Of a stretch of 46,688 nucleotides of DNA, positions 7,422-39,667 are shown piece after piece. Source of the stretch: an uncultured bacterium (GTDB taxonomy: Bacteria > Verrucomicrobiota > Verrucomicrobiia > Verrucomicrobiales > DEV007); the NCBI GenBank assembly GCA_963977015.1, contig CAXBMO010000036.1, positions 1 through 46,688 of the forward strand, in the 5' to 3' direction. Made by a program: the position numbers and the translations under genes. Under the pieces are notes generated by a model. It was given only the letters and a program-made list of their open reading frames with translations. It was not told the origin of the DNA and searched no databases. The first letter of the stretch is position 1. Each line of letters starts with the position of its first letter.

Positions 7422-9221
7422 TTAAAGGTTTCCTTTTTTGGATTCTTCGATCATGCGGTCAGCGCATCGCCAGGCCAGCGCCATGATCGTTTCGGTCGGA
7501 TTCTTGTCCGCGTTGGAGGCGAAGGGCGAGCCGTCACAGAGAAAGAGGTTCTTCACGTCCCACGTCTGGTTCCACTGGTTGCAAACCGACTTCGCAGGAT
7601 CGTCGCCCATGATCGCGCCACCCACTTCGTGGATGACCTGACCACCCTTGAGAATCGAGTCGCGCCCGGACTTCCCTCCCCCACCCATCGGGGTTCCGCC
7701 CATTTCACCGATCAACTGCTCAAACGTGCGCTGCGCGTGATCCGCCATCGCCAGTTCCTGCTCGCTCCACTTCCAATGCCACTTCATCACCGGGATTCCC
7801 CACTTGTCCTTCACGTCGGGATCCAGCTCGGCATACGAGTCTTCGTTCGGGATCATTTCGCCGCGACAGGCGTAGGAGACAAAGGAGCCATAGTAACGAC
7901 GCGCCTCCTCTTTCAGCTTGGTCCCGAACAGCCCTTTCAGGTATTCGCCCGGAACGGGACTGGTGCCCCGCGGCATCCTGCGCGTGCCGCCAATCTCGAT
8001 GTGATACCCGCGGGAGAAATCCATTTTCCCAGCTTTCTGGTCACCGTAGAGCCACCACGGACTGTAAAAGTGGCCACCGCCGGCGCCGTCGTCATTGTGG
8101 GGCGGCAAATTCTCAAGCGCCGGAATTTGCCCGCGCAGATCGGACCCCACCGTATCCATGATGTACTTGCCGACGAGACCACTGCGATTCGCCACCCCTT
8201 GCGGAAACTGGCCATTGGCCGAATTCAACAGAATCCGGACGGTTTCGCCGCTGCTCGCCGCGAGGACGACCGACTTCCCTTTGACCCGTTCCTCCTTGCC
8301 GGAGGTTCGATCGATGAAGAGGACTCCCGAGGCCTTGCCGTTTTGATCGATCAGGACCTCCCGGGCATGAGCGTCCGAAATGATGTCGAGATTCCCGGTC
8401 GCAAGCGCCGGCGGCAAATGGACGGTCGTGCTTTGGTAGTTCGCGCGAATGCTGCAACCGCGCCCACAGGGAGTCGCCCAAAAACAGGCGGCGCGGCCCC
8501 GCATCGATTCCCCGACAATCTTCTGCGCGTTCTCGTCATCAGGATGCAGTAGGGCCGGCAACGTGGCCGCATCCTGGGGCTTGGTCAGGACCGCGCGATG
8601 AATCGGCACCACCGGAACTCCGAGCTTCTTCCCCGCTTTCTGGGTGATCAAATCGCCAATGCGTCCCTTCGGTGGCGGCTGAAGCACTCCCGGAGGCGAG
8701 TCCGGCGTATTTTCGAGCCCTTCGTTGGAACCATAAACCCCAATCAAGCGCTCAACCCGGGTATAGTAGGGCTCGACATCCTCATAGGAAATCGGCCAGT
8801 CAAATCCCAGCCCGTCGCGACTGTAGGGCTTGAAGTCGTAGGGGCCATTGCGCAGGCTGATTCGGCCCCAGTGATTCGTGCGCCCTCCCAACATCCTCGC
8901 CCGCCACCACATGAATTGTTCCGCATCCTCCTTGCTCGCCTGGGTGTAGGGCTCGCCGGGCACCTGCCATCCGCCATCCACCGTGGCATCGTGAAACCCA
9001 AACGGTTTGTCCGGCGTCGAGGTCCCACCGAGCGGCGCCTGCGCTCCGGTTTGAAACATGGGCGTCTCCATCGCCGGATCATAGGATCGGCCTGCCTCCA
9101 ACATGAGACATTTTACGCCGGCAAGCGTCAGCGTATAGGCCATCTGGCCTCCGCCGGCTCCCGAGCCAACAATGATGACGTCGTATTCTGGTTTTGCTTT
9201 CGAGATGGGTATAATGGGCAT
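7422..9221 (-). CDS. GMC family FAD oxidoreductase
   Basis: IIVGSGAGG FAD motif, LGGRTNHW, C-terminal IHEVGGAIMG and NPTETIMALAWR. Confidence 0.93.
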   Translation of the reverse strand: MPIIPISKAKPEYDVIIVGSGAGGGQMAYTLTLAGVKCLMLEAGRSYDPAMETPMFQTGAQAPLGGTSTPDKPFGFHDATVDGGWQVPGEPYTQASKEDAEQFMWWRARMLGGRTNHWGRISLRNGPYDFKPYSRDGLGFDWPISYEDVEPYYTRVERLIGVYGSNEGLENTPDSPPGVLQPPPKGRIGDLITQKAGKKLGVPVVPIHRAVLTKPQDAATLPALLHPDDENAQKIVGESMRGRAACFWATPCGRGCSIRANYQSTTVHLPPALATGNLDIISDAHAREVLIDQNGKASGVLFIDRTSGKEERVKGKSVVLAASSGETVRILLNSANGQFPQGVANRSGLVGKYIMDTVGSDLRGQIPALENLPPHNDDGAGGGHFYSPWWLYGDQKAGKMDFSRGYHIEIGGTRRMPRGTSPVPGEYLKGLFGTKLKEEARRYYGSFVSYACRGEMIPNEDSYAELDPDVKDKWGIPVMKWHWKWSEQELAMADHAQRTFEQLIGEMGGTPMGGGGKSGRDSILKGGQVIHEVGGAIMGDDPAKSVCNQWNQTWDVKNLFLCDGSPFASNADKNPTETIMALAWRCADRMIEESKKGNL

Positions 9222-9230
9222 CGTGACTAA

Positions 9231-10616
9231 CTAGTTTGTTGGGGTTTTAAAAACATCAATTTCGCCGAAAAACGTGTGCTGCGCCGGCAATCCGTCCGGC
9301 ATCGGGGTCGGAATCACCTGGAACAACAGGTAACGAAACGTGCCGATCGACGGCGCGTTGGAATGAATCGCGCAAGCCTGCTGAGCCGGCCGGTCGGGCT
9401 CGTCCTCCACGCCGAAAAATGCATCGGTGTCCACCCGGGCAATCCGGGTCCACCCCACCGCACTCCTGGCCGACGGCATCGTCGCGGGTTTCTCCCTTCC
9501 ACAGCCCCAAAGCGTATAGCGCTGCACCGCGCGCTTCCTCGCCCCGGGCTCAACCTCGCTGAGATGCCACGAATAGGTGTGGATTCTCGAAACCGGAATC
9601 TCGCGTCCCAGGTCCAGCAGAATCGTTCCCTCGGCTCCATTCGGAAAGAAGAACGACTCGCCCGGTTGATCGCGCCCCGTCTGCGCCTTGCCGTCGAGAA
9701 GAAGCTCGGGCGGGCCACTTTCCTGGTGCGGCAAATTCTCGCGCCCCTTCCCATCTCGGCTGATCAACACCACGCTTCCCCTCCCCTGTTGCAACCCGGC
9801 CTCATCATCCCGGGACGGTGGCGGAATCGTGGGGAACGAAAACGCGGGCGTCTCATCCCCCTGCTCGATCCGGATCATGACCGGCGTGTCACCCGGCTCG
9901 ATGCCGAACCCGCTCCCCTTCCCCAATCGCTCCTGGGCAAACCCTTTCACCTCAACATCCACCGCACCCGAGGAAACGTGCATCTGGCTGAAACCGTCCG
10001 GACTGGCGGTGGTGAGAAACTCCGTCCCCTGGTCCATGAACTTCCCGGTATGCGTCTCAATCGTGAACCCGTGGGACTCCTCGGTATCGGCCTGGGAACG
10101 GGCCTCCCCATAGTAGAGAAATCCGCCATTGCCGGAAAGAACCTCAAAGAGCGCCGGCCCATGAATCCGCGTCAACGCGCCGGTTCGGAAACGCACTTCC
10201 ACACTCCCGGACGCCAACCGAAGCTGATCTCCGGACCTCAGCCGCTGCCCTTCCATCATCGCATCCGAGAGCCATCTCGCCTTCGCCGCCGAGGCAATCA
10301 CGGCCTCCTCAGTTCGCAACAGCAACGGCGCCAGCAAGACCAACCCCATCAGGCAACATCCCACCAGTCCCGCCGCGAGAATCCAGGATCTTCGCGACAA
10401 CGCCGGAAGCACCACCCCCGGCCTCGCCGACGGCTCCTGTTTGCTCGCGATTTCACGCAACAACGTGTCCATCTTCACCGCGCCAAAGTATTGGTCCCGC
10501 TTCCGGGGATCGCTCCGCAGCGTCGCCTTCAGCTCGGCAAACTCCTCTTCGCCAAGGGTCCCGTTCAAATAGCGGTCGACCAAATCCAACCAATCCGATG
10601 ACGATTCCGGCTTCAT
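9231..10616 (-). CDS. FecR-domain anti-sigma factor
   Basis: N-terminal helical domain, TM helix, LRLASGSVEV..GPA..DQGTEF..HVSSGAVDV FecR motifs; ATGA overlap with the sigma gene stop fixes the start at 10616. Confidence 0.85.
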   Translation of the reverse strand: MKPESSSDWLDLVDRYLNGTLGEEEFAELKATLRSDPRKRDQYFGAVKMDTLLREIASKQEPSARPGVVLPALSRRSWILAAGLVGCCLMGLVLLAPLLLRTEEAVIASAAKARWLSDAMMEGQRLRSGDQLRLASGSVEVRFRTGALTRIHGPALFEVLSGNGGFLYYGEARSQADTEESHGFTIETHTGKFMDQGTEFLTTASPDGFSQMHVSSGAVDVEVKGFAQERLGKGSGFGIEPGDTPVMIRIEQGDETPAFSFPTIPPPSRDDEAGLQQGRGSVVLISRDGKGRENLPHQESGPPELLLDGKAQTGRDQPGESFFFPNGAEGTILLDLGREIPVSRIHTYSWHLSEVEPGARKRAVQRYTLWGCGREKPATMPSARSAVGWTRIARVDTDAFFGVEDEPDRPAQQACAIHSNAPSIGTFRYLLFQVIPTPMPDGLPAQHTFFGEIDVFKTPTN

Positions 10617-11152
10617 CCTTCTGAAAAACGCCCCTCCAGTTTTTCCGTCACGCACTGCTCAAGCTTCGATCGAATTCGCCGGATTTGTTTGTAAAGACTG
10701 TTGCGCGTTCGCCCGCTCGCCTCGGCCAACCGGGTCAACAGTCCGTGCCCCTGGTAGGGCGCCAACACCAATTGACGGCTCGAATCGCTCACCGCCTCCA
10801 GGCATTCCTCCAGCACCGCCTGCTCGCGAATGAGATCCGGCTCCACCTGCTCCTCCTCGTGCTTCGCCAACAGCTCCAACAAATCCGGATCGAACACATT
10901 CCGGTCCCGCGCCTTCGTCCGGCAATACTTCTGCGCCTCAAACCGCACCACGCACTTGCCCCACGGCAAAAACCCGCCCGGCAAATCCACCTGATCCAGC
11001 TTTCGCCACATGATCAGGCTCGCGTTCTGAATCACCTCATCCACCGCATCCCACGTCGGAAGCAGGCTCCGGGCACAGGCACGAAACGCCGATTCGTGGC
11101 GCGCAAACAGCGTCTCGAACTCAACGTCAGAAGATGTGGGGTTTTCAGCCAA
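10613..11152 (-). CDS. ECF sigma-70 factor (Rhodopirellula/Verrucomicrobium type)
   Basis: DEVIQNASLIMWRK..FLPW region 2; region 4 SLYKQIRRIRSKLEQCV; TTG start as in ORF track. Confidence 0.9.
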   Translation of the reverse strand: MAENPTSSDVEFETLFARHESAFRACARSLLPTWDAVDEVIQNASLIMWRKLDQVDLPGGFLPWGKCVVRFEAQKYCRTKARDRNVFDPDLLELLAKHEEEQVEPDLIREQAVLEECLEAVSDSSRQLVLAPYQGHGLLTRLAEASGRTRNSLYKQIRRIRSKLEQCVTEKLEGRFSEG

Positions 11153-11271
11153 GGAATCGGATCAATCGGACATTCAACACCAGTAACTCCCACCTTGATC
11201 CAAATCGGCCCAAAATGGACCATTTTCTTTTCCCGATCCATGAATCCGGTCTCAGCGGCGGAGTCTTTGGG

Positions 11272-11545
11272 GCGGAATTTCTGGCGAATTCCGCTACAGA
11301 CGTCGAGGATTTCTCACGCAGAGCCGCGGAGACGCAGAGATCATCAAGAATCCTCTGCGGCTTTGCGTCTCTGCGTGAGGATTTCGTTGTAGAGGAATCC
11401 GCGAGGAATTCCTGGGTAAAGGAATCCGTAAGGAATTCTCCCGCATCCCCAGGCAGCCAACTCCACGGCCGGCACAGGATTCGCGACTTTCGGATTCCAG
11501 CCCGGCGCAGGTGAGGGACTCACGCAGAGCCGCAAAGTCGCAAAG
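11272..11545. repeat. Cluster of REP-like palindromes: GTAG-type REPs (11272-11297 minus; 11389-11413 and 11416-11439 plus) and CTCACGCAGAG inverted-repeat family (11313-11339/11353-11379; third copy ~11519-11545)
   Basis: GTAG followed by imperfect hairpin (GTAG-AGGAATCC-GCGA-GGAATTCCT; GTAG-CGGAATT-CGCCAG-AAATTCCGC); 27-nt imperfect inverted pair around a 13-nt spacer. Confidence 0.8.
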
Positions 11546-11938
11546 GATTCAGGAACGGCAATGAGAACGAACCTGAAGGAGGCAGGCCAATCCTGTTCAG
11601 GCGTTTCAGAGGGGGGCGGATTATTTGGCGATGCTGTTTTCGAATAACGTGAAATCCTGAACCATCGCGCTTAGCGATTTCGGGGCTGTCCAAATACAAC
11701 CATTCGGGAGGGTGCGAATCCCCTGTGGGCTAGTCGATTCCCTGTGTACGCTTCATCAATGCTGTTCCGCCAGCCATTTGCCGTAAAGGACGAATGGAGG
11801 TAGTCCTTGGTCGCGCGGCGGCTTCCGCGATTCTTCTCTGGCTTAGCTAACATGAACGCAACACTCGGTAGCGACTACTGGCTAGGTTTTATCACAAGAT
11901 AACTTTCAAATCATAAGAAACGCCTCGCTTCGCTTGGC

Positions 11939-11997
11939 GCACAACGGATGCGCTCATCCGACGCGATCAGCGTTCGGGGTGGAGCGCTTTGTTTGTC
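11939..11997 (-). other. Isolated attC site (59 bp)
   Basis: Minus strand GACAAAC-AAAGC-GCTCCACCCCGA...TCGGATGAGC-GCATCC-GTTGTGC: AAC/GTT core triplets, paired L boxes with extra bases, same length as the attC at 43316-43374. Confidence 0.7.
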
Positions 11998-12122
11998 CTT
12001 GGTATTCGTTTTTGTTCGGTTTCGTCTGGGTTGGTGGCTTTTGACTTGGGAATTGGGATCTGCGCATGCGTAACTTGTTTTTCGGCCTGTGTATTCCAGC
12101 TAGCATGCCGTTAGATTTGGTG

Positions 12123-15100
12123 TCATCGCTCGGATTGCTGAGACTCGACGACGGCTTTGGCCGCTTGGTTTTTTAACTCTGCTGACCATTGATGCCAGTC
12201 GGTCGGGGCTCCGGCTTGATCTGCTATTTGCTGGATAACTTGTTGAGGGAGTTGAGCAAGGAGTTGGTCTACGGTAACTCCACCGGTTTTATGTCCCGAG
12301 ATTTGCTGAGCTCCTTCTTGAGGGAGCATTTCAAGTAGGTCTTGTGACAAAGAACGCTGATCGATATCAGGGGCTGGCAGTCGATCCGCATTTTTTTCAA
12401 CAGATTTGATGTATTCGTCCCGTTCACTGTGGTATGCCTGCTCCTCTTTGCGCAGGGGGGCGAGGAGCCGCTCCAAGCGTGGTTGCGCCTCGGCCAACGC
12501 TTCCAACCGCGACATCAGGTGCCACCAACCTTCCTCTCGCACTTGGGCGCAGGCGATTTGTAAGTTGTCCAGGCTGGGTTCTATCTCGCATTGAAGCACG
12601 GCGAGGTCGGCTCGGCGGCGTTCGTAGCGATGCTGATCGATCAGCCCTTTGGCTTTTTCGAGCCATTTCTGTGCTGCATTGGATTCGCCTGTAACGGCGC
12701 CAACGACAGCGCGTTGCCCTCCAAGGCGGCATTCCATCTGACCCCGCAAAAGATAGGCCTCGGCCAAAAACAGGGGCATAGGCCCGCGCTGTGCCCGGGT
12801 CTCGGCTTCGTTCAGAGCCGCTTCGATAGCGGCGCGATCGGGAGCCGAAGCGAGGAGGAGGATCTCGGCTTGGGCGAGGTAGCCTCGGGGGATGTGGTCT
12901 TCGCTGTTGGCTTCGAGGATGCGGGCGAGGAAGTCGAAAGAGGGGGCTGCGTCCTGATGGGCTTGGGCTCGGGCGGCGTTGAGTTCGTCGAGGCCGATAG
13001 GGAGGAGCAAGTTGTTTTGTTGGTGCAGCTGTAACGAATAGGCGACGCGCTCGCGGACCTCTTGGGGGCGTTGGCGGGCGAGGAGGAGATCGCCGTAGAG
13101 GAAGCCTGAGAGGGAATAGAGGCGGGGGAGCTGGGGCTGGCGCTCGCGCTGGAGTTCCTCGGCCTCGCGGAAGCGCGCCTCCGCCTCGCCCAGGCGACCG
13201 GCGGCGAGGAGGGCGTTGGCGTCTGCGTTGGCGCGTTTGCTCATCCGCTGGAAGAGATCGCCGGACTGGTCGGCGTAGGAGACGGCGTCTTGGGCGGTGG
13301 GCAGGGCCCCCGGCTCGCCCGCCTCGTCCCGCTCCAGGTGGCCAAGAGTGAGGAGGAGTTCGCTGAGGTTTCCGTGGCCGACGGCCGTGTGCTTCCAGTT
13401 TTCTTCTTGATCAGTCAAGCGGGCGTACTCACGAAAGGGAGCGACGGCGTCGGGGAGTCGGCCGATGGCGCGCAAGCGGAAGCCCGCTAGGTTGAGGACC
13501 AAGACCTGATCGGAAGGCTGGAGGTGGGGATGGGGGGTGGAAAAGGGCGAGAGCGGCTCGTCCGTCTCCGGGTGCCGGGTGAGAAAGAAGCTGGCCAGGG
13601 CGGCGAGGTCCTGGCCGTAGAGTCCGAGTTTGTGGACGGCATACTTCTCGTTGCCCCGGGAGATGCGAGGCCAATAGACCTCATTGAAGCATTCGTCGTG
13701 CCGCCCCGCCAGGCAGCCATGGCCGATGGCGGCGAAGAGCGGTGTCATCCCCGCTTCGTCGGCGGGGAGGAAAGTTTGCAGGGCGGTTTCCCAATCCGAG
13801 TTGTCGATTAAGGTTGCCGAAGCCTTTAACTGTTCTGAAGAAGCTGGCCTAAGGCATGGAGGTAGGACATCCCATTCGGGCAGCGTCCCTTTGGAGATCG
13901 ACTCGTTGAACCGAACTTTGAAGTCGGGAAAGGCACCGCAAAAAGCCAAGACCCCATAAGCCACCGGATCCCGAAACGCCTCCCGCAACCCCGCAAAGCG
14001 AAACCAATCATAGAGCCGCCCATGCGTCGCTCGGAACGCTTCCGGGTATTGCGTCTCCAGCTGATGGCCGAAGTATTCCCGGATGAGCGGGTGGCAGTCC
14101 ACGTGGTGCTGGTGCCATCCCTTGTCTACGGCAACGCTCTCCCACTCCGCGTGCCCACCTTCCACGGTGGTGAGCCGGGCTTTGGAGACGAGGCCTTGCC
14201 CGTTGAGCTGTTGCAGGGCGTTGGTGACGCTGCGGGGGCCTTGATCGAACCGGGCGAAGACGGGCGGAAGCCAGTAGTGGAAGGAGAGCTGGTAGAACCG
14301 GTCTTCAAAGCGGTGCCGCGCGGCGAGGCGATCGTCGTCGCTGGCGTTGGGATCGTTGAGGACCTGGTCCCGTTTGGCGGCCTCCGCTTCCACCTGACGC
14401 AGATACTCCGCCTTGTCTTCCGGTTGCATGTGCACGGCGTCCCGCAGTTCTTCCGGGGCATCGTAGACCACTGGCAGCAGATCCAGAGCGGCGGGTCGAT
14501 CGAAGAGGCCGAGGAAGTAGAGCAGGGCCAGTTGATTGGCGGCGGGGGAATCCGCGATGGATTCCTGGGCGCTCATGCGTTGCAGCCGATGGTGCAAGAC
14601 GCGGTAGAGCCCCACTTCCAAAGCGCGCATGACGCGGAAGGGGCTGCGATGGTTCTCGTGGATGCGGGAGTCGTCGTGCAGATGGGGCAAGACGTCGGCA
14701 AAGGCCTTGATCTGACCTTCGTAGCTGTTGGCCACTAGGTGGGCTGCTAGGTTAAGAGACAACGCATGATTTCTAAGTCCTTCTATGGAACGTACGAACT
14801 CCACCCTTACGGGCTCAGGCAATTCGGGATGAGTGTCTTGTGGGAAGGTAACGGCCTCGATGCCACGATCTCGGAGCAACTCGATAGCAGCTTCGGTGGG
14901 AAGCTGGTCCAGGACGCGGGACTGGAAGCCGCTGTGGTCCGAGAGTTCGTGGATACGGATCCGGGTGGTGACGATGGTGAGTCCCTGGCCGATGTCCGCT
15001 AGGCGACGGAGGAGGGCTTTGACCCCCTGATCCTTGATCCCGCCAAAGTGATGGCTATGGACGTTATAACCGCCGGCGGCATACTGAAGGGGTTCCAAGC

Positions 15101-18100
15101 CGTCCAGGACTAGGAGGGTGCGCTGATAGGCAATGAGCTCGGCGAGCTGGATGCCCTGATCATAGGGTGCGTCGGGCAGCCCGTCTTTGCCTTCGGGATG
15201 GAAATGGGCGTAGGCGGCCTCGAAGAAATCCGCAGCGTGGGCCTGCTTGTCCTCGCTGGAGCCCTGGGAGTAGAAGGACCATATGAAGACGGAGTCCAAG
15301 GCAGGCCAGCCCTGTGCCTTGAGCTGGTGGACGAAGTGGTCGATGAGGGCAGTCTTTCCGGAGCCTCCCATGGCGTCGTAAGCAACGATGCGAGTGTTTG
15401 CGTCACGCAGATCGTTGAACAGTTGGGCGATTTCGGCTTCGCGGCCATAAAGCTTGCCGGTGTAGGTGGCGGGGAGGCAGTTGGTGTTGAAACTTACATT
15501 TCGTCTGGGGAGAGCGGGGCTCAGGTTGACTATGTCGTGGCCATCGAGAAGCGCGGCCTCGCAGTCTTCGATGCGCACGCCTATGATCTGCTTTCCCAAA
15601 GAACGGGCCAGTTCGATCTCTTTGGCGACCCAAACCGACGCCATAGAGTAGTGCGAAACGATAACATAGAATCTGTGGCATTTCTGAATCCCCTGTTCGA
15701 TTTCACTCCAGAACCCGGCTCCGGCAGGAATGCTGCGGACATCATTAAAGGTGACCTCTTCCTTATGAAGCTGGCGGATAAGTGCCTCAAATTCTCCAAC
15801 ATAGGAGTCGTCTGCTGAGCTGTGGCTGAGAAAAATGGAGGTCGCGGCTATCCTATGGTCAATGATGTCGTTGTGTTCGAAAAGAGGAAAAGCGTCACAG
15901 CCGTCGATGCGGATGGGAACTATTTTCTTCCCTAGGTTGCGGGCTAGCTCCACTATTTTGAGGATCCATTCCGACGCCAATGAGTAGCGGGAAACAATGA
16001 TCACCAAGGCTTCGCACGCGGGAATACCTCGCTCAATCTCAGGCCAACGCTCGCCCCTAGCAGGTATGGTGAGGACTTCTCCTAATACCTCTGTCTCTTG
16101 CTGTGTGGACAGGAAAGACTTAACGTCGGCAAGGTGGCGTTCATCCGGCAAACTGTAACTCAGGAGGCTGAAGTCAATCAGTCGAAAATATGCCAAGAGC
16201 AACTCTGGCTCTTCCAGGAAACAGTTCAATCCAGCATCTTCGTATCCCAGCCTCTTCCGCAGTTCTCGCGTAGCATCTCTAAATCTTCGAAATGGCTCGA
16301 CAGGCTCATCGCCTGAGAAAGCCCAAAGGACTCCTCTCTCTTCTGCGATTTTGCATTCTTCCAGGCACAGGTCGAAGCGCGGCGAATGGGCGGGGAGGAT
16401 CGCAAAAATTCGCTTTGCATGCGCCAACGCTTGAAGAAGCTCATGGATGTCTGCATCTGCGGCATTCGTTCGTGTTCGTCTATCGCGCCAGACTTTGATG
16501 CCCCGATCGGCCAATGCCTTGTGAAGTTTTTCCGCGGCATCAATTTCCTCCGGGCAATAACTGATGAAAACGTCAGGATGAAGGACGTTGGACGGCGGGA
16601 TTGTTTCAACCCGAGTGCCTTGGCCCGATGCCGAGTTGGAATCAGGCCGCCGAACAACGACGCGGCGCTCGGAATCGGAATCAACTGGATCGCCGAGTTC
16701 CTCATCAAGACCCGCCAAAAACGGAGTATCCAGATTCTGAGTAATCGCCCAATCCACTTTTGCGATCAAATACCGACGAACCTCGTCGCCTGAGTAATCC
16801 GACAGATTTCGAAATCGGTATCGAATGGCTTGATCAGGCTCGGAAGATCGTTCAACCAAGCCGCTGGCGAGGAACTCGAGCAAAATGGAGGCATGGAATG
16901 CAGGGAAATATTGATCCAGGACTCGATACAGAATGGACGGAGAGAGTTCTGGTAGTGCGCTTGCCGCGCCTGCGAAACGAATGGCATCGGCGGAAAGACT
17001 GTCGAGCAGTTCCTTGAGGAGTGGAAGGTTGGGCGAATCCGGCGCGGACGAAGGAAACGCTTCCGGGGGAACGCTAGTGAACTCCAAGGCGGCAAAGCGT
17101 GAGTCACGTCGTGGAGCCGTGACGAAGCGTGCCCACGCCGCAACGATTTCCCTTTCGAAAGGGACCAATAAGAAGGGATACTTCCCTCTGCTGTCGATTT
17201 CCTCCTGACACCACCGAAGTCTTCCCGGGACGCTAAGGCGAGATGGCTTCCTGGTTTGGCGAATGAGGGGATGCACGCTGGCGATGCGTTCCGGAAGCGG
17301 CGTGAAGATCGAGCATAGAAATCGACGGGACAGATGATTGAAGAGACCAAAGAGTTGCTCAAGCTCATGCGGGGAACTGGAGATCAAATCGCCGAAGCCG
17401 ATAACAAGAGTTCTTTCCCGCGGCTCCGAAATGACAACGGGTTTCTGACCTCCAGAGGCCGTCCTTCTCAACAATTGAGGTGTGCCGTCACCTCGAAAGC
17501 TCACTTGTAGGTTCACCACTTTGAATCCCAGGTGACTCGAGAAGAACGCGTTCAGATCCCGGATATAGAGTTCCCAAAGTGGAGCGAGACGCGAGGAACA
17601 ATCGACGAGATAGATCGTAGGATGAAGTCGGCCTTGTGTTTGATACTCCGGGCGAAAGACCTGGGTACGGGCATAGGAATCCACGGTCTTGGGTTCATCC
17701 AAGGAGGCCGTCTGCCGGGACCCATGAAGCTTCAGGAGAGGGAGGAAGACTTGTTCCCAGTGGCGGCAACGGCGCTGGGTGGTTTGAAGAAGCTCAAGCC
17801 GAAGAGCTTGGGCGCGAGAAACCCCAATTTCGATGATATGCTCAGGCGGCGTGGAAGGGCCGACATCGGCATCAATCTTATCTTGCTGGATCAGCGCAGC
17901 GCGAATTCTCTGGTCCCAATCCGGCTTTACAGGGCGAAACTCCCGGGACGCTGATGGTGAGGGTTCCGGTCTATCTTCTCTTTTCTGATTCGCTTCGACG
18001 TCTTCTTGGATCGATTTCGATTCGGAGGACCGATGGCTTTTGGCTTTGGGACCTTGCCGCAATGCCCAGTAAAGGAGGAACTCCTCTATGGAGACCATTT

Positions 18101-18149
18101 TATGGCGGTTGGTAAGGTCCTGGATTTGATCTTCAATCATGAGCCACAA
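12123..18149 (-). CDS. vWA-like (SAV_2336-type N-terminus) + 3x TIR + STAND NTPase + TPR-like effector of a MoxR-vWA ternary conflict system
   Basis: LDEPKTVDSYA..YLVDCSSRL..W vWA-like module; TIRs starting DVFISY (~16574), FSLLSY (~16172), IFLSHS (~15837); Walker A AMGGSGKT, Walker B LLVLDGLE; helical repeat C-terminus. Start may be ATG 18140. Confidence 0.85.
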   Translation of the reverse strand: MWLMIEDQIQDLTNRHKMVSIEEFLLYWALRQGPKAKSHRSSESKSIQEDVEANQKREDRPEPSPSASREFRPVKPDWDQRIRAALIQQDKIDADVGPSTPPEHIIEIGVSRAQALRLELLQTTQRRCRHWEQVFLPLLKLHGSRQTASLDEPKTVDSYARTQVFRPEYQTQGRLHPTIYLVDCSSRLAPLWELYIRDLNAFFSSHLGFKVVNLQVSFRGDGTPQLLRRTASGGQKPVVISEPRERTLVIGFGDLISSSPHELEQLFGLFNHLSRRFLCSIFTPLPERIASVHPLIRQTRKPSRLSVPGRLRWCQEEIDSRGKYPFLLVPFEREIVAAWARFVTAPRRDSRFAALEFTSVPPEAFPSSAPDSPNLPLLKELLDSLSADAIRFAGAASALPELSPSILYRVLDQYFPAFHASILLEFLASGLVERSSEPDQAIRYRFRNLSDYSGDEVRRYLIAKVDWAITQNLDTPFLAGLDEELGDPVDSDSERRVVVRRPDSNSASGQGTRVETIPPSNVLHPDVFISYCPEEIDAAEKLHKALADRGIKVWRDRRTRTNAADADIHELLQALAHAKRIFAILPAHSPRFDLCLEECKIAEERGVLWAFSGDEPVEPFRRFRDATRELRKRLGYEDAGLNCFLEEPELLLAYFRLIDFSLLSYSLPDERHLADVKSFLSTQQETEVLGEVLTIPARGERWPEIERGIPACEALVIIVSRYSLASEWILKIVELARNLGKKIVPIRIDGCDAFPLFEHNDIIDHRIAATSIFLSHSSADDSYVGEFEALIRQLHKEEVTFNDVRSIPAGAGFWSEIEQGIQKCHRFYVIVSHYSMASVWVAKEIELARSLGKQIIGVRIEDCEAALLDGHDIVNLSPALPRRNVSFNTNCLPATYTGKLYGREAEIAQLFNDLRDANTRIVAYDAMGGSGKTALIDHFVHQLKAQGWPALDSVFIWSFYSQGSSEDKQAHAADFFEAAYAHFHPEGKDGLPDAPYDQGIQLAELIAYQRTLLVLDGLEPLQYAAGGYNVHSHHFGGIKDQGVKALLRRLADIGQGLTIVTTRIRIHELSDHSGFQSRVLDQLPTEAAIELLRDRGIEAVTFPQDTHPELPEPVRVEFVRSIEGLRNHALSLNLAAHLVANSYEGQIKAFADVLPHLHDDSRIHENHRSPFRVMRALEVGLYRVLHHRLQRMSAQESIADSPAANQLALLYFLGLFDRPAALDLLPVVYDAPEELRDAVHMQPEDKAEYLRQVEAEAAKRDQVLNDPNASDDDRLAARHRFEDRFYQLSFHYWLPPVFARFDQGPRSVTNALQQLNGQGLVSKARLTTVEGGHAEWESVAVDKGWHQHHVDCHPLIREYFGHQLETQYPEAFRATHGRLYDWFRFAGLREAFRDPVAYGVLAFCGAFPDFKVRFNESISKGTLPEWDVLPPCLRPASSEQLKASATLIDNSDWETALQTFLPADEAGMTPLFAAIGHGCLAGRHDECFNEVYWPRISRGNEKYAVHKLGLYGQDLAALASFFLTRHPETDEPLSPFSTPHPHLQPSDQVLVLNLAGFRLRAIGRLPDAVAPFREYARLTDQEENWKHTAVGHGNLSELLLTLGHLERDEAGEPGALPTAQDAVSYADQSGDLFQRMSKRANADANALLAAGRLGEAEARFREAEELQRERQPQLPRLYSLSGFLYGDLLLARQRPQEVRERVAYSLQLHQQNNLLLPIGLDELNAARAQAHQDAAPSFDFLARILEANSEDHIPRGYLAQAEILLLASAPDRAAIEAALNEAETRAQRGPMPLFLAEAYLLRGQMECRLGGQRAVVGAVTGESNAAQKWLEKAKGLIDQHRYERRRADLAVLQCEIEPSLDNLQIACAQVREEGWWHLMSRLEALAEAQPRLERLLAPLRKEEQAYHSERDEYIKSVEKNADRLPAPDIDQRSLSQDLLEMLPQEGAQQISGHKTGGVTVDQLLAQLPQQVIQQIADQAGAPTDWHQWSAELKNQAAKAVVESQQSER

Positions 18150-18155
18150 GGGATG

Positions 18156-19145
18156 CTAGCCCAGGTAATGGAAAGCGAGGGTCCTTCGAAGCTCCTCGGG
18201 AACATCCGTGTGGGAAAGAAACAGCATGTTGATCAATTGATCGACGGACCTCCCGTCCAATTCACCGAGGTCCCCTGTGGGCAAGTTCGCGTTCTCCACA
18301 ATGCGCTGAACTTGGCCAGCGCTGGGATTCGCCATTTCGTACCTCAGCACACGGCGAAGGAAGGCTGGCGGGAGGTCTCGAGTTTGATTGCTGGTGAAAA
18401 GAATGAGAGGAAACTCAAGGCACTCTACGTATCCGTTGGTCAAAACCACATTGGGACGCCTATCGGCGGTGGCAACGGGAATGGGCTGCCCAAGCTGATT
18501 GTGGATTCTCGCGAGTTCAGGAATGTCAAATGCCCCTTCATCGAGGATCGAAAGCAGGTTGTGAGGAAGATCATAATCTGATTTGTCGATTTCGTCGATT
18601 AACACAACTCGAGGCCGTAGCCCAGGAAGAAGGGCTGTGCCGAGAGGACCTAACTGAAAGTAAATACCCTCCTCCTTGGCCCTCTGCTTCCTTGATCTCC
18701 AACCAAAACTCCCCTCGTGCCCCCTGCGGACGGTAGCTTCCATCCGCGCAATCGCATCATATGAATATAGCCCCTCAGTGAAGGTGGACCGTGAGGTGAG
18801 ATTCCACCGCAAAATGGGTCCGAGTCCCAAAGAGTGCGCAATGAAGTAGGCAAGACTCGTCTTTCCGATTCCTGGTGGGCCTTCTAAAAGGAGCGGGCGC
18901 CGAAGAAGCAGGGCGGCTTTCACAGCAAAAAGTTCATCGCAATCGGCCTCGGAGGAGGCGGAGAGGACATACTGATTCCCCCTTCGCTCCAACTCGTTCT
19001 GTGCGTTTTCCGCAAAGTTCGGATGATAGAAGTTGAATTTCCCTCTCTTTTTCGCCTCGTCAATCCGGCTCTGGTAGGGCCGGATGCTGGGGCCGGGCTT
19101 GATCATCTGATCGTCGTTCTGGAGAATGTCGTCAAAGAAGGTCAT
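18156..19145 (-). CDS. MoxR-family AAA+ ATPase
   Basis: RRPLLLEGPPGIGKT, GLYSYDAIAR, LGPLGTALLP, VLIDEIDKSD, TSNQTRDLPPAFLRR: the MoxR subtype of VMAP systems. Confidence 0.93.
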   Translation of the reverse strand: MTFFDDILQNDDQMIKPGPSIRPYQSRIDEAKKRGKFNFYHPNFAENAQNELERRGNQYVLSASSEADCDELFAVKAALLLRRPLLLEGPPGIGKTSLAYFIAHSLGLGPILRWNLTSRSTFTEGLYSYDAIARMEATVRRGHEGSFGWRSRKQRAKEEGIYFQLGPLGTALLPGLRPRVVLIDEIDKSDYDLPHNLLSILDEGAFDIPELARIHNQLGQPIPVATADRRPNVVLTNGYVECLEFPLILFTSNQTRDLPPAFLRRVLRYEMANPSAGQVQRIVENANLPTGDLGELDGRSVDQLINMLFLSHTDVPEELRRTLAFHYLG

Positions 19146-19153
19146 GGCTACTG

Positions 19154-20821
19154 CTAAATGAGGCTAAGGTGAGAAAACATTTGTGCGAGTTCCCCATCCG
19201 GATTTGGAATCGATTCATCGGGATCCAGCGGAGGATCACAAATTAACGTAACTGGAGGCGATGGAAGGCGATCACCATTTGCTTTGAAGTGAAGCCAATG
19301 GTTTCCTTTGGGACAAGGTGAGCAATCACTTGTGAGGTCGGCAAGATCTTGGAAATCACCGAGGACAACGAATGCAAGACAATTTCTCTCGTCACCAAGA
19401 TCATGTTTGTGTAGCTTCTTCGGCGCTCTCTGGTCGGGATCGCTCCACTTCCTCTTTAGAACGGTATACTGATCTCTCCACGCTCTCCGTTCTGGCGTAT
19501 CGCCGACTGGGCATTGGTCATGCCGACGGAGAAGTCGGCGGCAAATGGCAAACCTGGCGCCCAAAGCAGAGTGATGGTCACGAACCGTCGATAGCTGCTC
19601 GATCGGAATAAAGAACTCATCCTCTTCTAGAAAGAATTCAATTTGCGGTAGGTGTTCGAAAATTTCCTCCCCTGTGCAATCAAAAATGGTTTGCAATTGG
19701 TGATAGGAAAAGAGCCAACATTTTTGCAGAAAATCGCCCGCGAATCTCCGGAGGGAGGCACCATCAATGGTGTCTTGCGAGTGGAAGATCCTCTGCTTGC
19801 CCATCCAAATCTCCCAGACCAACAAGAAGAATCCATGGGAGCCATCCCAAGACGAATCTTTGGGGCGCAAGTAGGAGCGGATCTTCAGGTTGCTTTGAAT
19901 ACTTTTCAGAGGCTCAATGCAGTACAGGCGGCGGAACTGATCGGCACGCTTCCATACTTCGTCCCTGAGCTCTCGATTCTTGGTGAAAGGAGAAAGCGGG
20001 TGTTGCGTCCAGAGATAGAGAAAGCGATAGAACTTCTCGGGCGAATCTAGCACCTTAAAGAAGATGTAGGAGAGAATGTCCAACTCGTCTTCGCTCGAAG
20101 GCAGAGTCGGCAATTGATCTAGATGGCCCGTCGCAAGGGCCGCAAAAAATAGGTGGACGTCATCGTAATGGTCCCAAAGGTATTCGTTTGGGGCATTGGC
20201 AAGGAGTTTGCATATAGAAACTCGGAAGCGATCTGGAGTTTCGAAACAAGCGCATCCATCAATGGCCCCGAGAATCTGCCGGCGAAAAGAGTCATCGATA
20301 CTGAATGGAATAGAAGCGGGGTAATGCTTCTCGTTTAGCTTGATCAGTTCTGCATTGTCCTCGATATCGTCTTTGGAAAAGCTAAGCCCGGTGCCTAAGT
20401 GGAGCAAAAGGATAAAGTATCGCTTGGGGTGTTCCTTATAATGGTTGAGAGCAACTCTCAGCTCTCGTCGGACCTGGTCGTCTGGCAAATCAATGCTACG
20501 TTCAGTCTGGTCTGGTGGGGGGCTGCCCGATGCTCGCTTGTCTAACCAGATTGCTTTGTTGCAGTAAAGAAAGATGACGACTTTTGCTCTGTGCTCCGTG
20601 AGGGGCGGTTGCAGTGCTTCGTCAATTTGAGGGCTCCAATTCTGCCCCGGTTTCATGGTTTCAACATCGAGAAATACCTCTGTGTCAGGCCCCCACTCTT
20701 CGATCAGCAACCTGCGAAGTTGCGGGGCCACTTGATTGGCCTCCTTATCAAGGCGCCGATACGAGATGAAGAATGATGGCTCCTGGGGGAAACCGGTTTG
20801 TGATTCAGCTTCTACAGACAT
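19154..20821 (-). CDS. TIR-domain protein, probable vWA-MoxR-associated protein (VMAP)
   Basis: FFISYRR..VFLDVETMKPGQNW..QVRREL TIR; C-terminal IEFFLEED.F.IPIEQL..LGARFAI..R..W..KW resembles VMAP-C; directly upstream of MoxR. ATG 20821 preferred over 20938. Confidence 0.75.
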   Translation of the reverse strand: MSVEAESQTGFPQEPSFFISYRRLDKEANQVAPQLRRLLIEEWGPDTEVFLDVETMKPGQNWSPQIDEALQPPLTEHRAKVVIFLYCNKAIWLDKRASGSPPPDQTERSIDLPDDQVRRELRVALNHYKEHPKRYFILLLHLGTGLSFSKDDIEDNAELIKLNEKHYPASIPFSIDDSFRRQILGAIDGCACFETPDRFRVSICKLLANAPNEYLWDHYDDVHLFFAALATGHLDQLPTLPSSEDELDILSYIFFKVLDSPEKFYRFLYLWTQHPLSPFTKNRELRDEVWKRADQFRRLYCIEPLKSIQSNLKIRSYLRPKDSSWDGSHGFFLLVWEIWMGKQRIFHSQDTIDGASLRRFAGDFLQKCWLFSYHQLQTIFDCTGEEIFEHLPQIEFFLEEDEFFIPIEQLSTVRDHHSALGARFAICRRLLRRHDQCPVGDTPERRAWRDQYTVLKRKWSDPDQRAPKKLHKHDLGDERNCLAFVVLGDFQDLADLTSDCSPCPKGNHWLHFKANGDRLPSPPVTLICDPPLDPDESIPNPDGELAQMFSHLSLI

Positions 20822-21184
20822 CGAAGTCGTCCTTTGATCGGATGGAGGTGAGCGATCGTTTGCGATTGCATTGGGCACTTGTGGCAGCGGGGTGACCTTT
20901 CTCTTCAATCCCCATCTTGTCTTTAGGGGGACTTCCAATATTGTCGATCCATTGATCCGCGTAGTATTGCTGGACGAACGATAGAGCTGTGCCGCCCGTG
21001 CCGAATGGGCGAGCGCCGTAGCAAATTTGATTTATGAAATCAGAAAAAAACATCGAAAGCAAGGCGCGGCGCGTGTCGGACACCAGCCGTTTGACATCCC
21101 CTTCGTTGGGTTCGGGTGGGTGGCATATTGGGCATACAATCATTGAGGCGACCAGGTCTCGCGGCACAACCCTAAAAGCATCAA

Positions 21185-21691
21185 TCAACTGGGACGTGGT
21201 TCCGCCCCGTATTTTTCTTCGACTTTCGCATTTAACCGCATTATCTCTGGAAGAGCTAGGATTCCCAATTTCGTTGCGGCGGCATTTTTCCGCCGCAACG
21301 CTTCGACGAAATCAACGACAATCGGATCATCGGATAGCGGCTCTAAAATGTTGTCAGGATAGGCATAATCTCGTGGTTCAGCTGCGTCGGGATCGTGGAC
21401 AAACTGAATCTTGCCCTCTCTCCACTCGTTTGGTGTCGGGTCATTAAGCGTTCCATAGGGAGCCTGCCATACCGCGTGAAATTCAGCTTCAACGAAAACG
21501 GATGGCCACTCCCACAAGCACCAACCCAAAAGCATGGTCCCTTGCTTTTTTGCGCATAGATTTTTCACATTGGGAATGCAATCCCCAGTCTTGGCCCAAC
21601 TTTTGGGTTGAACTTCTACGGAACGGAGAGGTTCGGATGAAAGCTGTGAGGCAAATGCGAGAATGGCCTCTGATCTGTCCGGGGTGTGCAT
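21185..21691 (-). CDS. Hypothetical protein, putative papain-like Cys-His-Asp fold
   Basis: GDCIPNV...LGWCLWEW..EAEFHAVWQAP.G.L.DPTP conserved pattern; likely start MHTPD. Confidence 0.65.
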   Translation of the reverse strand: MHTPDRSEAILAFASQLSSEPLRSVEVQPKSWAKTGDCIPNVKNLCAKKQGTMLLGWCLWEWPSVFVEAEFHAVWQAPYGTLNDPTPNEWREGKIQFVHDPDAAEPRDYAYPDNILEPLSDDPIVVDFVEALRRKNAAATKLGILALPEIMRLNAKVEEKYGAEPRPS

Positions 21692-22282
21692 CCTTGGCTG
21701 TCGCAGTGTTAGAGGGATAACTAGGGATATCCTGCAGATTCGCAGGGATATCCTTTTGTGTTTAACATTCTTACAGGGAGAATTGTGAATTGAGACGGGT
21801 TGGTAAAAGCCGAATTTGGAAAGATTTAAGGTGCATGATGAAATGGGCGCACAGCCGCCTGCGTTGGGAAGGTTATCGGGGCGAAATGGCGCTGTCAAGA
21901 CGGTTGGCGGTACTTTGTGCATGGCGCTTCGAGGGGAGAGGAGAGGGGGAGGAATGGAGGAGGTGTATTCGTTAACGAATCACAGCCGGTGGCAACAGCG
22001 CGAAGGATTTGAGTGTTGGTCTCGTAACGGCGCTACGAGCGCAAAGGCGGGGGTTGAGGGGGGGGAGTGATTGGGGATTGCCGAACCGGTTTTGGTCTGA
22101 GACTTGAGCGATCTGCCAGGCCCTCCGCAGATCCGCGTGCGCCATTCTTCCGCGATTGGTGAACCGGGTCCGCCGCACAAGCGTTGCAGGGCTTGGGATG
22201 GTCGATGACCAAGTCCGACGCGAGGTTCCAGCTCAAAGGGTTGCGGCGTTTGATGGGTTGGGGAGACGGGATGAGGGATTCC

Positions 22283-22362
22283 CGTTGTAGAGGAATCCGC
22301 GAGGAATTCCTGGGCGACGGCAGCAGCGGCTCTGGGGTGGAATTTTTTGCAAATTCCGCTAC
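22283..22362. repeat. Convergent pair of GTAG-type REPs (REPIN-like) just after the helicase stop
   Basis: 22287-22311 GTAGAGGAATCCGCGAGGAATTCCT (+) and 22337-22362 GTAGCGGAATTTGCAAAAAATTCCAC (-); 22283-22314 is identical to 11385-11416. Confidence 0.8.
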
Positions 22363-22366
22363 TGAC

Positions 22367-25567: not shown

Positions 25568-25569
25568 GA

Positions 25570-38876: not shown

Positions 38877-39003
38877 ACAGAACGGCAGCGCTGACCAGCA
38901 CGAACCGGGAGCGCCACATCACAGCAGGTAGAGAGTTGTAGTGGGTGATGCACTTTCTGGTCACACCGTAGGGTCCGTGTCTGTGTCCGGCGCATTGTTA
39001 GTC
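38877..39003 (-). other. attC site of cassette 6 (127 bp)
   Basis: GACTAAC (contains stop TAA) ... GTTCTGT with imperfectly paired arms. Confidence 0.8.
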
Positions 39004-39660: not shown

Positions 39661-39667
39661 ATTGACT

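Follow-up and report, generated by a model that had tools for sequence, protein, structure and literature searches.

The DNA described here is contig C36 of a metagenome-assembled genome (MAG), analysed over its whole length of 46,688 nt and referred to below as the window; the genome (6.89 Mb in 51 contigs, 95% complete, GC content 0.56) is of marine and probably verrucomicrobial origin. Three adjacent genes on the minus strand of the window are taken, with a probability of roughly 0.85, to be a VMAP–MoxR–vWA ternary conflict system of the class predicted by computation by Kaur, Burroughs, Iyer and Aravind (eLife 9:e52696, 2020, PMC7159879; Kaur et al. below). They encode a candidate TIR–VMAP protein, a MoxR-type AAA+ ATPase and a large protein in which, as judged from its sequence, a vWA co-chaperone is fused to two extra TIR domains and to a complete TIR–STAND–helical gene of a stand-alone, NLR-like type (Table 1).

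A first-pass annotation, made from the DNA alone, had noted three tightly linked genes, and this was borne out by open reading frames (ORFs) on the same strand with gaps of 8 nt (VMAP/MoxR) and 6–15 nt (MoxR/vWA); because the gaps are this short, the three genes look like one operon. The ORF of the VMAP-like gene was listed at 19154–20938, with 594 amino acids from a TTG, and encodes 555 amino acids if the ATG at 20821 is used. The same annotation had named the VMAP–MoxR–vWA triad, and it agrees with the analysis in gene order, in a MoxR of the VMAP clade and in a vWA region of SAV_2336-N type. Kaur et al. counted 1482 VMAP systems, and the window resembles these in having 5′ VMAP, MoxR, vWA 3′ tightly linked on one strand, in a third component that is likewise tripartite (enzymatic N-terminus, helical middle and VMAP-C), and in a vWA protein with an N-terminal helix, a Pro-rich linker, a C-terminal extension and variable effectors after the vWA domain.

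For the MoxR ATPase, both Pfam AAA_5 (E = 5.7e-8) and AAA scored above their cut-offs, and the Walker A lysine (K95), the Walker B glutamate (E185) and an Arg-rich FLRR segment are all present. Relatives were collected by an alignment-based scan with one genome per species, in which 592 were confirmed, and the 27 closest of the 80 loci kept were examined (E = 1e-43 to 1e-63, 39–49% identity). Their hosts are Streptomyces and other actinobacteria, cyanobacteria, a Planctomycetaceae MAG, a Verrucomicrobia MAG and two proteobacterial MAGs, which matches the phyletic pattern given by Kaur et al. for VMAP systems. The neighbourhood is conserved, as had been predicted: a same-strand ORF of at least 470 amino acids ends just upstream of the MoxR gene in 27 of 27 loci, a large ORF begins just downstream in 22 of 27 (most of the others run into contig ends), and the same order recurs in two related genomes, G002 of the same genus and G008 of the same family. 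Pfam VMAP-C was matched by 23 of the 27 upstream proteins; the remaining four, own-family rows, gave no match.

Two motifs, WxhapG and PsWRxa, are described by Kaur et al. as unique to VMAP-type MoxRs. PsWRxa could be found in the N-terminal extension of 26 of the 27 relatives and strict WxhapG in 21. The window MoxR carries an N-terminal extension of about 75 residues, in which PSIRPY stands in the place of PsWRxa, with the Arg but not the Trp retained, and WxhapG cannot be made out; the corresponding motif to PSIRPY is PPWRNF in G002 and PPWRAF in G008. By its closest relatives the window MoxR is placed in the VMAP-associated clade. The best NCBIfam row for this protein, 'MadB family AAA ATPase', was rejected, with a score of 64 bits against a cut-off of 475 and only unrelated uses of the name in the literature. 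Searches with PADLOC gave only matches of P-loop length to the MoxR (IetA, DolB and others).

For the N-terminal part of the large protein, NCBIfam SAV_2336_NTERM (NF041121) covers residues 35–448 at E = 1.2e-23, the sole such match in the genome, in keeping with the vWA-like region first suggested, though at a score under the 200-bit cut-off of that model. The same model was matched by all 23 of the downstream proteins of MoxR relatives that were scanned (best E = 1.6e-149). A hidden Markov model (HMM) built from 22 other vWA components, with the window row left out, found the window protein at E = 3.7e-27. Features shared in the alignment are an N-terminal helix with an acidic-aromatic motif (EEFLLYWAL in the window, usually E..D.LWLA), a Pro-rich linker, an LDE..T box, a first vWA strand with a MIDAS-like motif, a QPLPxRxW box that reads TPLPERI in the window, and a C-terminal helical extension in which S, E and R are kept. 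A word-based search with residues 1–500 of the large protein found only the protein itself.

An AlphaFold model of the vWA region (mean predicted local distance difference test score, pLDDT, 67) was compared by VIA-align with 48,161 chains in a whole-model pass. Only three chains reached Z ≥ 8, all of them MIDAS/vWA domains aligned over residues 122–349: Rea1 MIDAS (9.0), human MDN1 MIDAS (8.2) and CMG2 vWA (8.2). The next were TEM8 (7.8), ANTXR2 (7.8) and, in complex with NorQ, the VWA domain of NorD (7.6); NorD is the vWA partner of the MoxR-class NorQ. Together, sequence and model provide moderate evidence that residues 1–450 adopt a vWA fold of the SAV_2336-N type. As a separate lead from the same model, the C-terminal helical extension (residues 370–490, nt ~16680–17040) resembles the winged helix of NB-ARC/STAND proteins over about 89–108 residues (WRR4A, Z = 8.2; ADR1, 8.1; a STAND-TPR protein, 7.6; CED-4, 6.7), within a Z range that is common. 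Complex prediction with the vWA region (residues 112–490) and the VMAP-C region of the third component (residues 300–555), run without controls, gave scores of 0.22 and 0.00 against a mark of 0.32, which count neither for nor against such a complex.

The third component, the protein encoded upstream of MoxR, was assigned a VMAP-C because of its position, a profile–profile match, shared motifs and look-alikes in the ESM Atlas. For the profile–profile comparison with hhalign, a query profile of the window protein, its G002 counterpart, the database protein P0006 and an internal copy from a giant G002 protein (see below) was set against a target profile of the last 300 residues of the proteins encoded upstream of MoxR in the 27 related loci. 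The match had a probability of 95.6% (E = 4.5e-9, 286 columns), and 93.4% (E = 2.5e-7, 155 columns) in a second run, while the reversed query and 10 column shuffles stayed at ≤0.2%. A VMAP profile match had been anticipated by the first-pass annotation; it failed with the Pfam VMAP-C model and succeeded at this profile–profile level. The alignments share an EF.L...LG..fa..Rr..R block and a terminal h-L-h-D-P-P block. In the ESM Atlas, as a lead, all listed feature matches carry VMAP-C (top score 0.85, 197 shared features), as do 9 of 10 structure rows (TM 0.38–0.51 over residues ~306–539).

The position and spacing of the gene are those of the VMAP genes in all 27 related loci. An AlphaFold model of the protein has, beyond the TIR domain, a helical middle followed by seven strands and about six helices at low confidence; this secondary structure agrees with the published description of VMAP-C, a core of seven strands and 6–7 helices (Kaur et al.). 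Pfam VMAP-M had no match in the protein. The model was also submitted to Foldseek, and a VMAP-C fold could not be drawn from the result: whole chains of SPARTA TIR-APAZ came top (TM ~0.2, root-mean-square deviation ~28 Å), followed by a weak scatter of nuclease, Argonaute and AAA+ rows. The VIA-align list for this model was occupied by TIR domain matches. The third component thus appears to carry a very divergent VMAP-C, a remote assignment reached by remote-homology methods only.

TIR domains had been proposed on both the VMAP and the vWA protein, and both were recovered. In the large protein, Pfam TIR_2 (E = 2.4e-33) matches three stretches. TIR1 has a Glu, E598, in the catalytic column and lacks the motif Trp. 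In TIR2 the catalytic column holds Ile (I732), and this domain is probably non-catalytic; the same genome has a paralogue on contig C8, and because TIR2 is 44.7% identical to the TIR of that gene, a tandem duplication seems to have given rise to TIR2 and TIR3. TIR3 has E844 in the catalytic column and aligns Glu-on-Glu with the TIRs of SPARTA TIR-APAZ ('LKEL' segment) and Cat1; the SPARTA residue is presumably its catalytic E77. On the VMAP-like protein, the model confirms a real TIR fold, with Z scores from 13.8 to 11 to solved TIRs (Cat1 TIR, 13.8; IL-18Rbeta TIR, 13.6; SARM1 TIR, 12.8), and the TIR alignment shows E120 retained in the catalytic column. The catalytic-position Glu is accordingly present in three of the four TIRs, TIR2 being the one without it. 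The adaptor role at first given to the TIR on VMAP was not upheld: Kaur et al. list TIR among VMAP N-terminal domains as a nucleotide-signal-generating enzyme domain, not as an adaptor (EAD).

Downstream of TIR3, a predicted STAND-type P-loop NTPase, in line with the STAND module of the first-pass annotation, has intact Walker A (GGSGKT, K932) and Walker B (LLVLDGLE, D1016 and E1019) motifs and Pfam matches that are all below cut-offs. These matches, which fall within residues 899–1046, were AAA_16 (24.5 bits), NACHT (19.9–22 bits), nSTAND6 (19–21 bits) and NB-ARC (14.5–17 bits), with E = 4.3e-5, 7.2e-4, 1.3e-3 and 3.5e-3, respectively, in a sub-region scan, and no STAND clade was singled out. 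Homologues of the module carry PF05729, PF13191, PF00931 or PF25201. A PDB sequence search with residues 880–2008 gave no match at E ≤ 1. The TPR label could not be confirmed, since no TPR family was found in residues 1401–2008 at E ≤ 0.05 and the only match was DUF3856 (E = 0.023); TPR families occur on 15 of the best 120 module homologues listed, several of which are named 'TPR repeat protein' by JGI. With PADLOC-DB 2.0, which holds no VMAP-system model, only TIR segments matched (PDC-S66, SAVED_TIR, ThsB, Aga TIR, and TIR-NLR at E = 0.0086 over residues 772–851); resemblance to a known defence system, whether Avs, bNACHT, TIR-NLR, Thoeris or another, did not extend beyond this shared TIR.

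For the last 1244 residues of the large protein (765–2008: TIR3, STAND and helical region), 8000 candidates were scored, and 1405 of them are homologues at E ≤ 0.001. Nearly all of the best 120 are stand-alone proteins of ~720–1650 residues, apart from the window's own record, and a vWA-N HMM found its domain in none of the other 119. Of all 134 proteins collected, three alone were matched by this HMM: P0001, P0015 (the database entry of the window protein itself) and P0010, a vWA–TPR–TIR protein that is unrelated. Sequence comparison thus identifies this part as a captured gene of stand-alone immune type. The best homologue (P0016, 1133 amino acids) is the C8 paralogue, 72% identical over 1175 residues, and sits between unrelated metabolic genes. 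A third, more distant TIR–STAND relative in the same genome was seen on contig C11 (~149035–150975, minus strand; 36% identity over residues 760–1093).

In a tree of 19 sequences (the window module and 18 of the best 120 listed, selected by rank and coverage), the window module, the C8 paralogue, P0017 and P0019, the last named as from a Verrucomicrobiota MAG, group together with support 1.0. A tract of the module (Table 1) is nearly identical to the C8 paralogue; when it was removed, the other three grouped together and the window module branched next to them (unrooted FastTree, support 0.88), and therefore the capture appears not to be very recent. Because nucleotide identity is 92–100% within the tract and 67–81% beside it, the window gene and its free paralogue have probably undergone gene conversion. 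Protein identity to the paralogue is 100% over residues 1201–1300. A variant of the tract, with 9 differences over 275 nt, is present in metagenome contigs from two runs (X1 and X3), and the perfect identity of the tract could partly be an assembly effect. Base composition changes along the system, with GC contents of 0.50 for the VMAP-like gene, 0.54 for MoxR, 0.54 for vWA-N, 0.53 for the TIR region, 0.61 for STAND and 0.62 for the helical part, against 0.65 for the C8 paralogue; 1.5-kb windows of the genome average 0.56 ± 0.03, and 4% of them lie below 0.51.

Fusion of the two parts could in principle have arisen in assembly, by the joining of two genes at a repeat in a MAG. The genome is in 51 contigs, the stretch is contained only in low-depth marine metagenome runs, one tract is identical to another contig, and a variant of that tract is present in the reads. 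The organism was found at 2–5x depth in four such runs of one study, from which the assembly may itself have been made. The point of fusion (nt ~15857), however, lies 1.1 kb from the C8-identical tract, and with similarity to C8 of just 67–81% on both sides of that tract the window copy is distinct throughout. Contigs without differences bridge the TIR2/TIR3 junction in X3 (15772–16033) and in X2 (15814–16251), and others span the MoxR/vWA junction (X2 and X3) and the VMAP/MoxR junction (X2). The reading frame is moreover unbroken over 2008 codons, and an artefact is considered extremely improbable.

Several results weigh against the assignment as a VMAP-type ternary system or against its function as one. 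In the MoxR, the state of the two motifs is a sign of divergence or decay. In the vWA region, the NF041121 score of 83.8 bits is far below the curated cut-off, the MIDAS-like motif is degenerate (D183-C-S-S-R), and Foldseek gave no match at E ≤ 0.001 to the model, its top rows being phosphoribosyltransferases. For the third component, Pfam VMAP-C (PF20028) had no match at E ≤ 0.1 in the window, a custom HMM of VMAP C-termini gave 4.1 bits (4–11 bits for four own-family proteins), a word-based homologue search had no match, and the structural model is poor (mean pLDDT 60.7, below 50 over much of residues 465–555). A phmmer search of 1.84 billion cluster representatives returned 11 weak matches to this protein, 10 of them TIR-only and one collinear (P0006), which makes it almost an orphan. 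The Pfam matches of the STAND module fall short of their cut-offs, PADLOC gave no Avs or bNACHT match to it, and the relatives of the captured module are stand-alone, so that the module may work without the ternary core. No activity, expression or phage data for this or any VMAP system were found in the literature searched.

Read together, the results for the third component would allow it to be an unrelated TIR protein that lies upstream of a MoxR–vWA pair by chance, given the silence of Pfam, the negligible HMM-to-sequence scores and the low confidence of the model. The Pfam model also misses the counterparts in G002 and G008, and P0006. Elsewhere in the same genome it gave two weak matches (E = 0.0016 and 0.014), and in a 301-genome sample of the phylum none at E ≤ 1e-5; control genomes were blank as well, so absence from the phylum is not implied. 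Chance placement, however, fits poorly with collinear profile–profile matches over 155–286 columns beside flat controls, with the two shared sequence blocks, with ESM Atlas matches that are nearly all VMAP-C and with a position and spacing seen in every one of the related loci. It is judged improbable.

The degenerate state of the core (PSIRPY in MoxR, D-C-S-S-R in vWA and a VMAP-C below Pfam detection) could alternatively mean that the captured TIR–STAND–helical module works alone, the VMAP–MoxR–vWA core being a decaying relic or dispensable and no ternary gating taking place. In none of the other homologues listed, the 72% paralogue in the same genome among them, is the module joined to vWA, as such a reading would have it. 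A relic is harder to reconcile with long, uninterrupted ORFs (555, 329 and 2008 amino acids), with the intact Walker A and B motifs of MoxR and with the retention of conserved motifs in the vWA extensions. Accepted members of the class are degenerate too: 6 of the 27 MoxR relatives lack strict WxhapG, and many Streptomyces vWA rows read D-T-G-P-T at the MIDAS-like motif. VMAP and vWA components are, furthermore, described as fast-evolving (Kaur et al.). A module acting by itself is thus regarded as unlikely, and a divergent ternary system is preferred.

MoxR relatives at E ≤ 1e-10 were found in four of 41 genomes from the genus, family and order of the window's own, which is counted among the four. 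The G002 locus encodes TIR-X (563 amino acids), MoxR (344) and a vWA protein of 2995 residues (vWA-N, five copies of an FGE-sulfatase domain (FGS), a kinase and TIR), with no upstream extra. The G008 locus encodes an alpha/beta hydrolase, caspase-X (566), MoxR (342) and a vWA-N–FGS protein with two FGS copies; a pairing of alpha/beta hydrolase and caspase is described for VMAP systems (Kaur et al.). Because the window MoxR is only 45% identical to each of the two others, these are divergent systems and not orthologous copies. The effector domains C-terminal to vWA differ in every system, FGS-bearing in G002 and G008 and three TIRs, STAND and a helical region in the window, and among the 23 downstream vWA proteins of the MoxR relatives FGS was found in six, kinase in five, BTAD in four, TerD in two and LRR in one. 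Variation of effector sets between systems of this class is reported by Kaur et al.

The giant vWA protein of G002 (L009, contig C25, 9377–18364) also contains, at residues ~854–1405, an internal copy of the whole TIR–VMAP-like module, which shares 28% identity with P0006 over 579 residues and, over 449 residues, 24% with the VMAP-like gene upstream in the same locus. Because of this internal copy, a VMAP-like unit can evidently be fused into the vWA component.

From the VMAP systems as published, the window differs in a VMAP-C and a vWA so divergent that Pfam and NCBIfam models fail or fall below cut-offs, in a MoxR motif without Trp, in three tandem TIRs of which one has lost the catalytic Glu, and in its probable host phylum, Verrucomicrobiota, which is outside the list given in the available portion of the paper. 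According to Kaur et al., vWA components took TIRs from AP-ATPase-fused versions, and AP-ATPase and TPR occur fused to vWA. The same paper ties AP-ATPase–TPR effectors to peptide-processing genes, whereas none (radical SAM, MPTase, FxSxx or acidic peptides) was recognised beside the window system, among the small ORFs at 11160–12120 and 20940–22360, ORF245 and ORF127.

The second subsystem of vWA–MoxR ternary systems, the iSTAND type, shares with the window a MoxR–vWA pair and a third protein with an N-terminal TIR (Kaur et al.). The long N-terminal extension of the window MoxR, however, is missing from MoxRs of the iSTAND type, the window vWA is of SAV_2336-N type and not CoxE, and the third component resembles VMAP-C and not iSTAND; these three features set the window system apart from the iSTAND subtype. 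A second ternary system in the same genome (L012, contig C23, plus strand, 7788–9182, 9201–10184 and 10203–12728) fits that subtype: it encodes a TIR protein of 464 amino acids, a MoxR without N-terminal extension and an 841-residue protein with a weak VWA_CoxE match, and the ESM Atlas look-alikes of the C-terminus of its third protein are iSTAND clusters (0.90, 0.90 and 0.89). The window and C23 systems both carry a TIR on the third protein. The MoxR–vWA pair of C23 is 82–84% identical to a pair in genome G001.

Stand-alone TIR–STAND-repeat proteins (P0016–P0134) are 35–73% identical to the last 1244 residues of the large protein over most of their length, with the same order of TIR, P-loop NTPase and helical repeats. 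They differ in standing alone, where the window module makes up the C-terminal half of a vWA co-chaperone, with two more TIRs in front of it. Among the listed stand-alone relatives, none has a source name tied to a characterised system. SPARTA, a short pAgo with TIR-APAZ, is comparable in its TIR alone, with which TIR3 aligns and which the best Foldseek rows of the VMAP model contain; the window system is without an Argonaute. SPARTA and similar TIR effectors have in common that they are activated when their TIRs are induced to oligomerise.

The first-pass annotation knew of no experimental description of this architecture, and none was found in the literature searched for any VMAP system; its computational description, by contrast, already exists in Kaur et al. 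In the wider class, experimental work was found for a single relative, the beta-propeller-type MoxR–vWA pathway shown to sense epibionts, the Esr threat-sensing pathways of oral Actinobacteria (bioRxiv 10.64898/2026.09.08.750141). There, too, a MoxR–vWA pair stands between a variable sensor and a defence output, with the difference that Esr senses at the surface with beta-propellers, relays through kinase, phosphatase and FHA components and employs Esx secretion, with no VMAP, TIR or STAND.

A working mechanism of gated TIR assembly, NAD+ loss and abortive defence is put forward tentatively, at a little short of even odds. We infer that the vWA domain, the MoxR ring and VMAP-C would form a complex that holds the four TIRs apart. 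Recognition of an invader-derived ligand by the C-terminal helical region of the large protein would then lead to ATP-dependent oligomerisation of STAND. ATP hydrolysis by MoxR at the vWA/VMAP-C interface would be the threshold step, after which the VMAP TIR could join the TIR array, with TIR1, TIR3 and the VMAP TIR as the putative catalytic domains and TIR2 as a scaffold. The assembled TIRs would cleave NAD+. As an overall account, identity and mechanism together, this is the best explanation and is somewhat favoured.

Two published views of sensing bear on this scheme. In the model of Kaur et al., the MoxR–vWA pair remodels the ternary complex as a threshold before effector deployment, and the VMAP N-terminus signals or cleaves; Dore et al. 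2024 (PMC10907252) summarise that model as one in which VMAP is the sensor. In their own, sensing falls to the vWA protein, at its variable C-terminus, with a relay via MoxR to the VMAP effector. The Dore model is favoured here because the vWA protein bears what appears to be a complete NLR-like sensor and switch with single-protein relatives.

On the output side, the TIRs might make a nucleotide signal (a cyclic ADP-ribose isomer or similar) that activates an effector encoded elsewhere, in place of depleting NAD+. The classification of the VMAP TIR among nucleotide-signal generators (Kaur et al.) points that way, and ThsB-like models are among the best TIR matches. No SLOG, SIR2, SAVED or other known signal-receptor family was recognised, however, among the 10 flanking proteins scanned or the ORFs inside the 11.4–22.3-kb segment, nor was a ThsA-like partner found among the neighbours scanned. 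TIR–STAND fusions are usually terminal effectors, which also counts against signalling, and a signal of this kind is held to be distinctly unlikely. Because no TIR-signal receptor was seen among the neighbouring genes scanned, NAD+ depletion with abortive infection would be the likeliest output of the ternary system.

Table 1. Positions of the system's genes, predicted domains and bordering features in the window (aa, amino acids)
Feature	Position	Strand	Basis or remark
Third component, TIR–VMAP protein, 555 aa	19154..20821	-	ORF and translation; relatives with same gene order
VMAP-protein TIR, aa ~13–195	20237..20785	-	Pfam TIR_2 27.5 bits (cut-off 28); model
Helical middle, VMAP-M position, aa ~196–299	19925..20236	-	Model helices 198–299, pLDDT mostly 43–80
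Candidate divergent VMAP-C, aa ~306–539	19205..19906	-	hhalign; ESM Atlas; position; shared motifs
MoxR-type AAA+ ATPase, 329 aa	18156..19145	-	Pfam AAA_5; relatives adjoin VMAP-C genes
vWA component, 2008 aa, fused to effector and presumed sensor modules	12123..18149	-	ORF; database record from M4 has 2005 aa
vWA domain with N- and C-terminal helical extensions, aa 35–448	16806..18047	-	SAV_2336_NTERM; independent HMM; motifs; model
TIR1, aa ~524–610	16320..16580	-	PADLOC SAVED_TIR 526–558; RUN1 TIR aa 524–599, E 0.0099; second TIR_2 stretch
TIR2, aa 663–764	15858..16163	-	Pfam TIR_2 E 1.5e-19 (sub-region scan)
TIR3, aa 772–876	15522..15836	-	Best TIR_2 stretch; first domain of captured TIR–STAND–helical module
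STAND-type P-loop NTPase, aa ~899–1250	14400..15455	-	Sub-cut-off Pfam matches; Walker motifs
C-terminal helical (TPR-like) region, aa ~1251–1925, and 83-aa tail	12126..14399	-	Presumed sensor; tail absent from C8 paralogue
Tract near-identical to C8 paralogue	13942..14691	-	92–100% nt identity; 100% at 14242–14541
Upstream ORF245, 245 aa, no known family	21185..21922	-	System membership uncertain
32-nt exact direct repeat, left copy	11385..11416	.	Border of 10.9-kb segment
32-nt exact direct repeat, right copy	22283..22314	.	Beside 54-nt repeat 76% like one at 11255–11308

The system sits in a variable, low-GC, synteny-breaking segment (11.4–22.3 kb) bordered by the two copies of a 32-nt direct repeat, the 20-nt core of which has just two copies in the whole genome. 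No integrase, transposase or other recombinase was seen in the segment and no tRNA in the window; the 10.9-kb segment with its flanking repeats is therefore at most a putative mobile element. ORF245 had no Pfam match and no counterpart in related loci, and its 5′ third (residues 6–96) matches four other places in the genome (two on C6, one each on C30 and C19) at 47–61%. Short hairpin repeats centred on GGAAT(T/C)C fill the intergenic DNA on both sides of the segment (11255–11550 and 22283–22373; also 21640–21900), and parts of this repeat family recur on many contigs of the related genomes G002 and G003. Metagenome contigs end or rearrange at 11269–11298. A promoter scan of 11000–22500 gave 3 promoter-like sites against 4.3 in shuffles, not above expectation, and a terminator scan of the same interval gave 20 sites against 12.2 ± 3.4, somewhat above and none decisive. 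No RNA run containing the stretch was found among the public runs listed.

The flanking genes are ordinary on both sides. The left flank codes for a DUF7133/cytochrome c protein, a GMC oxidoreductase and a sigma factor of ECF type, and the right flank for an AddA-like helicase-nuclease (UvrD/PD-(D/E)XK), another protein with PD-(D/E)XK and a sulfatase. The AddA-like (UvrD helicase and PD-(D/E)XK, 1066 amino acids) and AddB-like (PD-(D/E)XK, 909 amino acids) proteins form a pair directly upstream of the segment (22367–28299, minus strand) that probably serves housekeeping recombination and repair. In G002 the AddA-like helicase is 79% identical at the DNA level and lies among different neighbours, on another contig than the left-flank genes, which share one contig in rearranged order; neither adjoins a triad, and synteny with G002 is broken on both sides by rearrangement. 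Further along the window, an Rfam group II intron domain (RF00029) was detected at 39668–39742 on the minus strand (44.4 bits, gathering score 40, E = 1.3e-5), adjoining ORFs 38998–39672 and 40437–41513.

The system class itself, the presence of TIR on VMAPs and that of TIR, AP-ATPase and TPR modules on vWA components were already known (Kaur et al.), and the source-data tables of that paper may already hold this architecture or verrucomicrobial systems. What is new is that all three core parts have diverged so far as to defeat family models, that the host is probably verrucomicrobial, that the TIR is triple with one copy probably dead, and that an entire NLR-like gene of stand-alone type has been captured, which apparently continues to exchange sequence with its free paralogue. 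Pfam VMAP-C and NCBIfam SAV_2336_NTERM miss such divergent lineages, and surveys may undercount the class outside actinobacteria and cyanobacteria.

The locus bears on the choice between the two published sensing models (Kaur et al. 2020 and Dore et al. 2024). Its presumed output, NAD+ cleavage by TIR domains, is simple to assay, and the free-standing 72% paralogue of the sensor/switch half is a built-in control for the MoxR–vWA–VMAP layer; fused gene and free paralogue together make the class experimentally approachable. It is possible, if rather doubtful, that the locus is a natural fusion of two usually separate immune switches, in which an NLR-like STAND–TIR protein, with a free paralogue that persists in the genome and recombines with it, is placed under a MoxR–vWA–VMAP gate and the output is a four-TIR hetero-oligomer of two polypeptides, three of the TIRs having the catalytic Glu and one being a scaffold. 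If so, the pair of fused and free paralogues would reveal the gate's contribution, and the ternary core would be a portable threshold device that can be attached to complete immune receptors and not just to bare effector domains.

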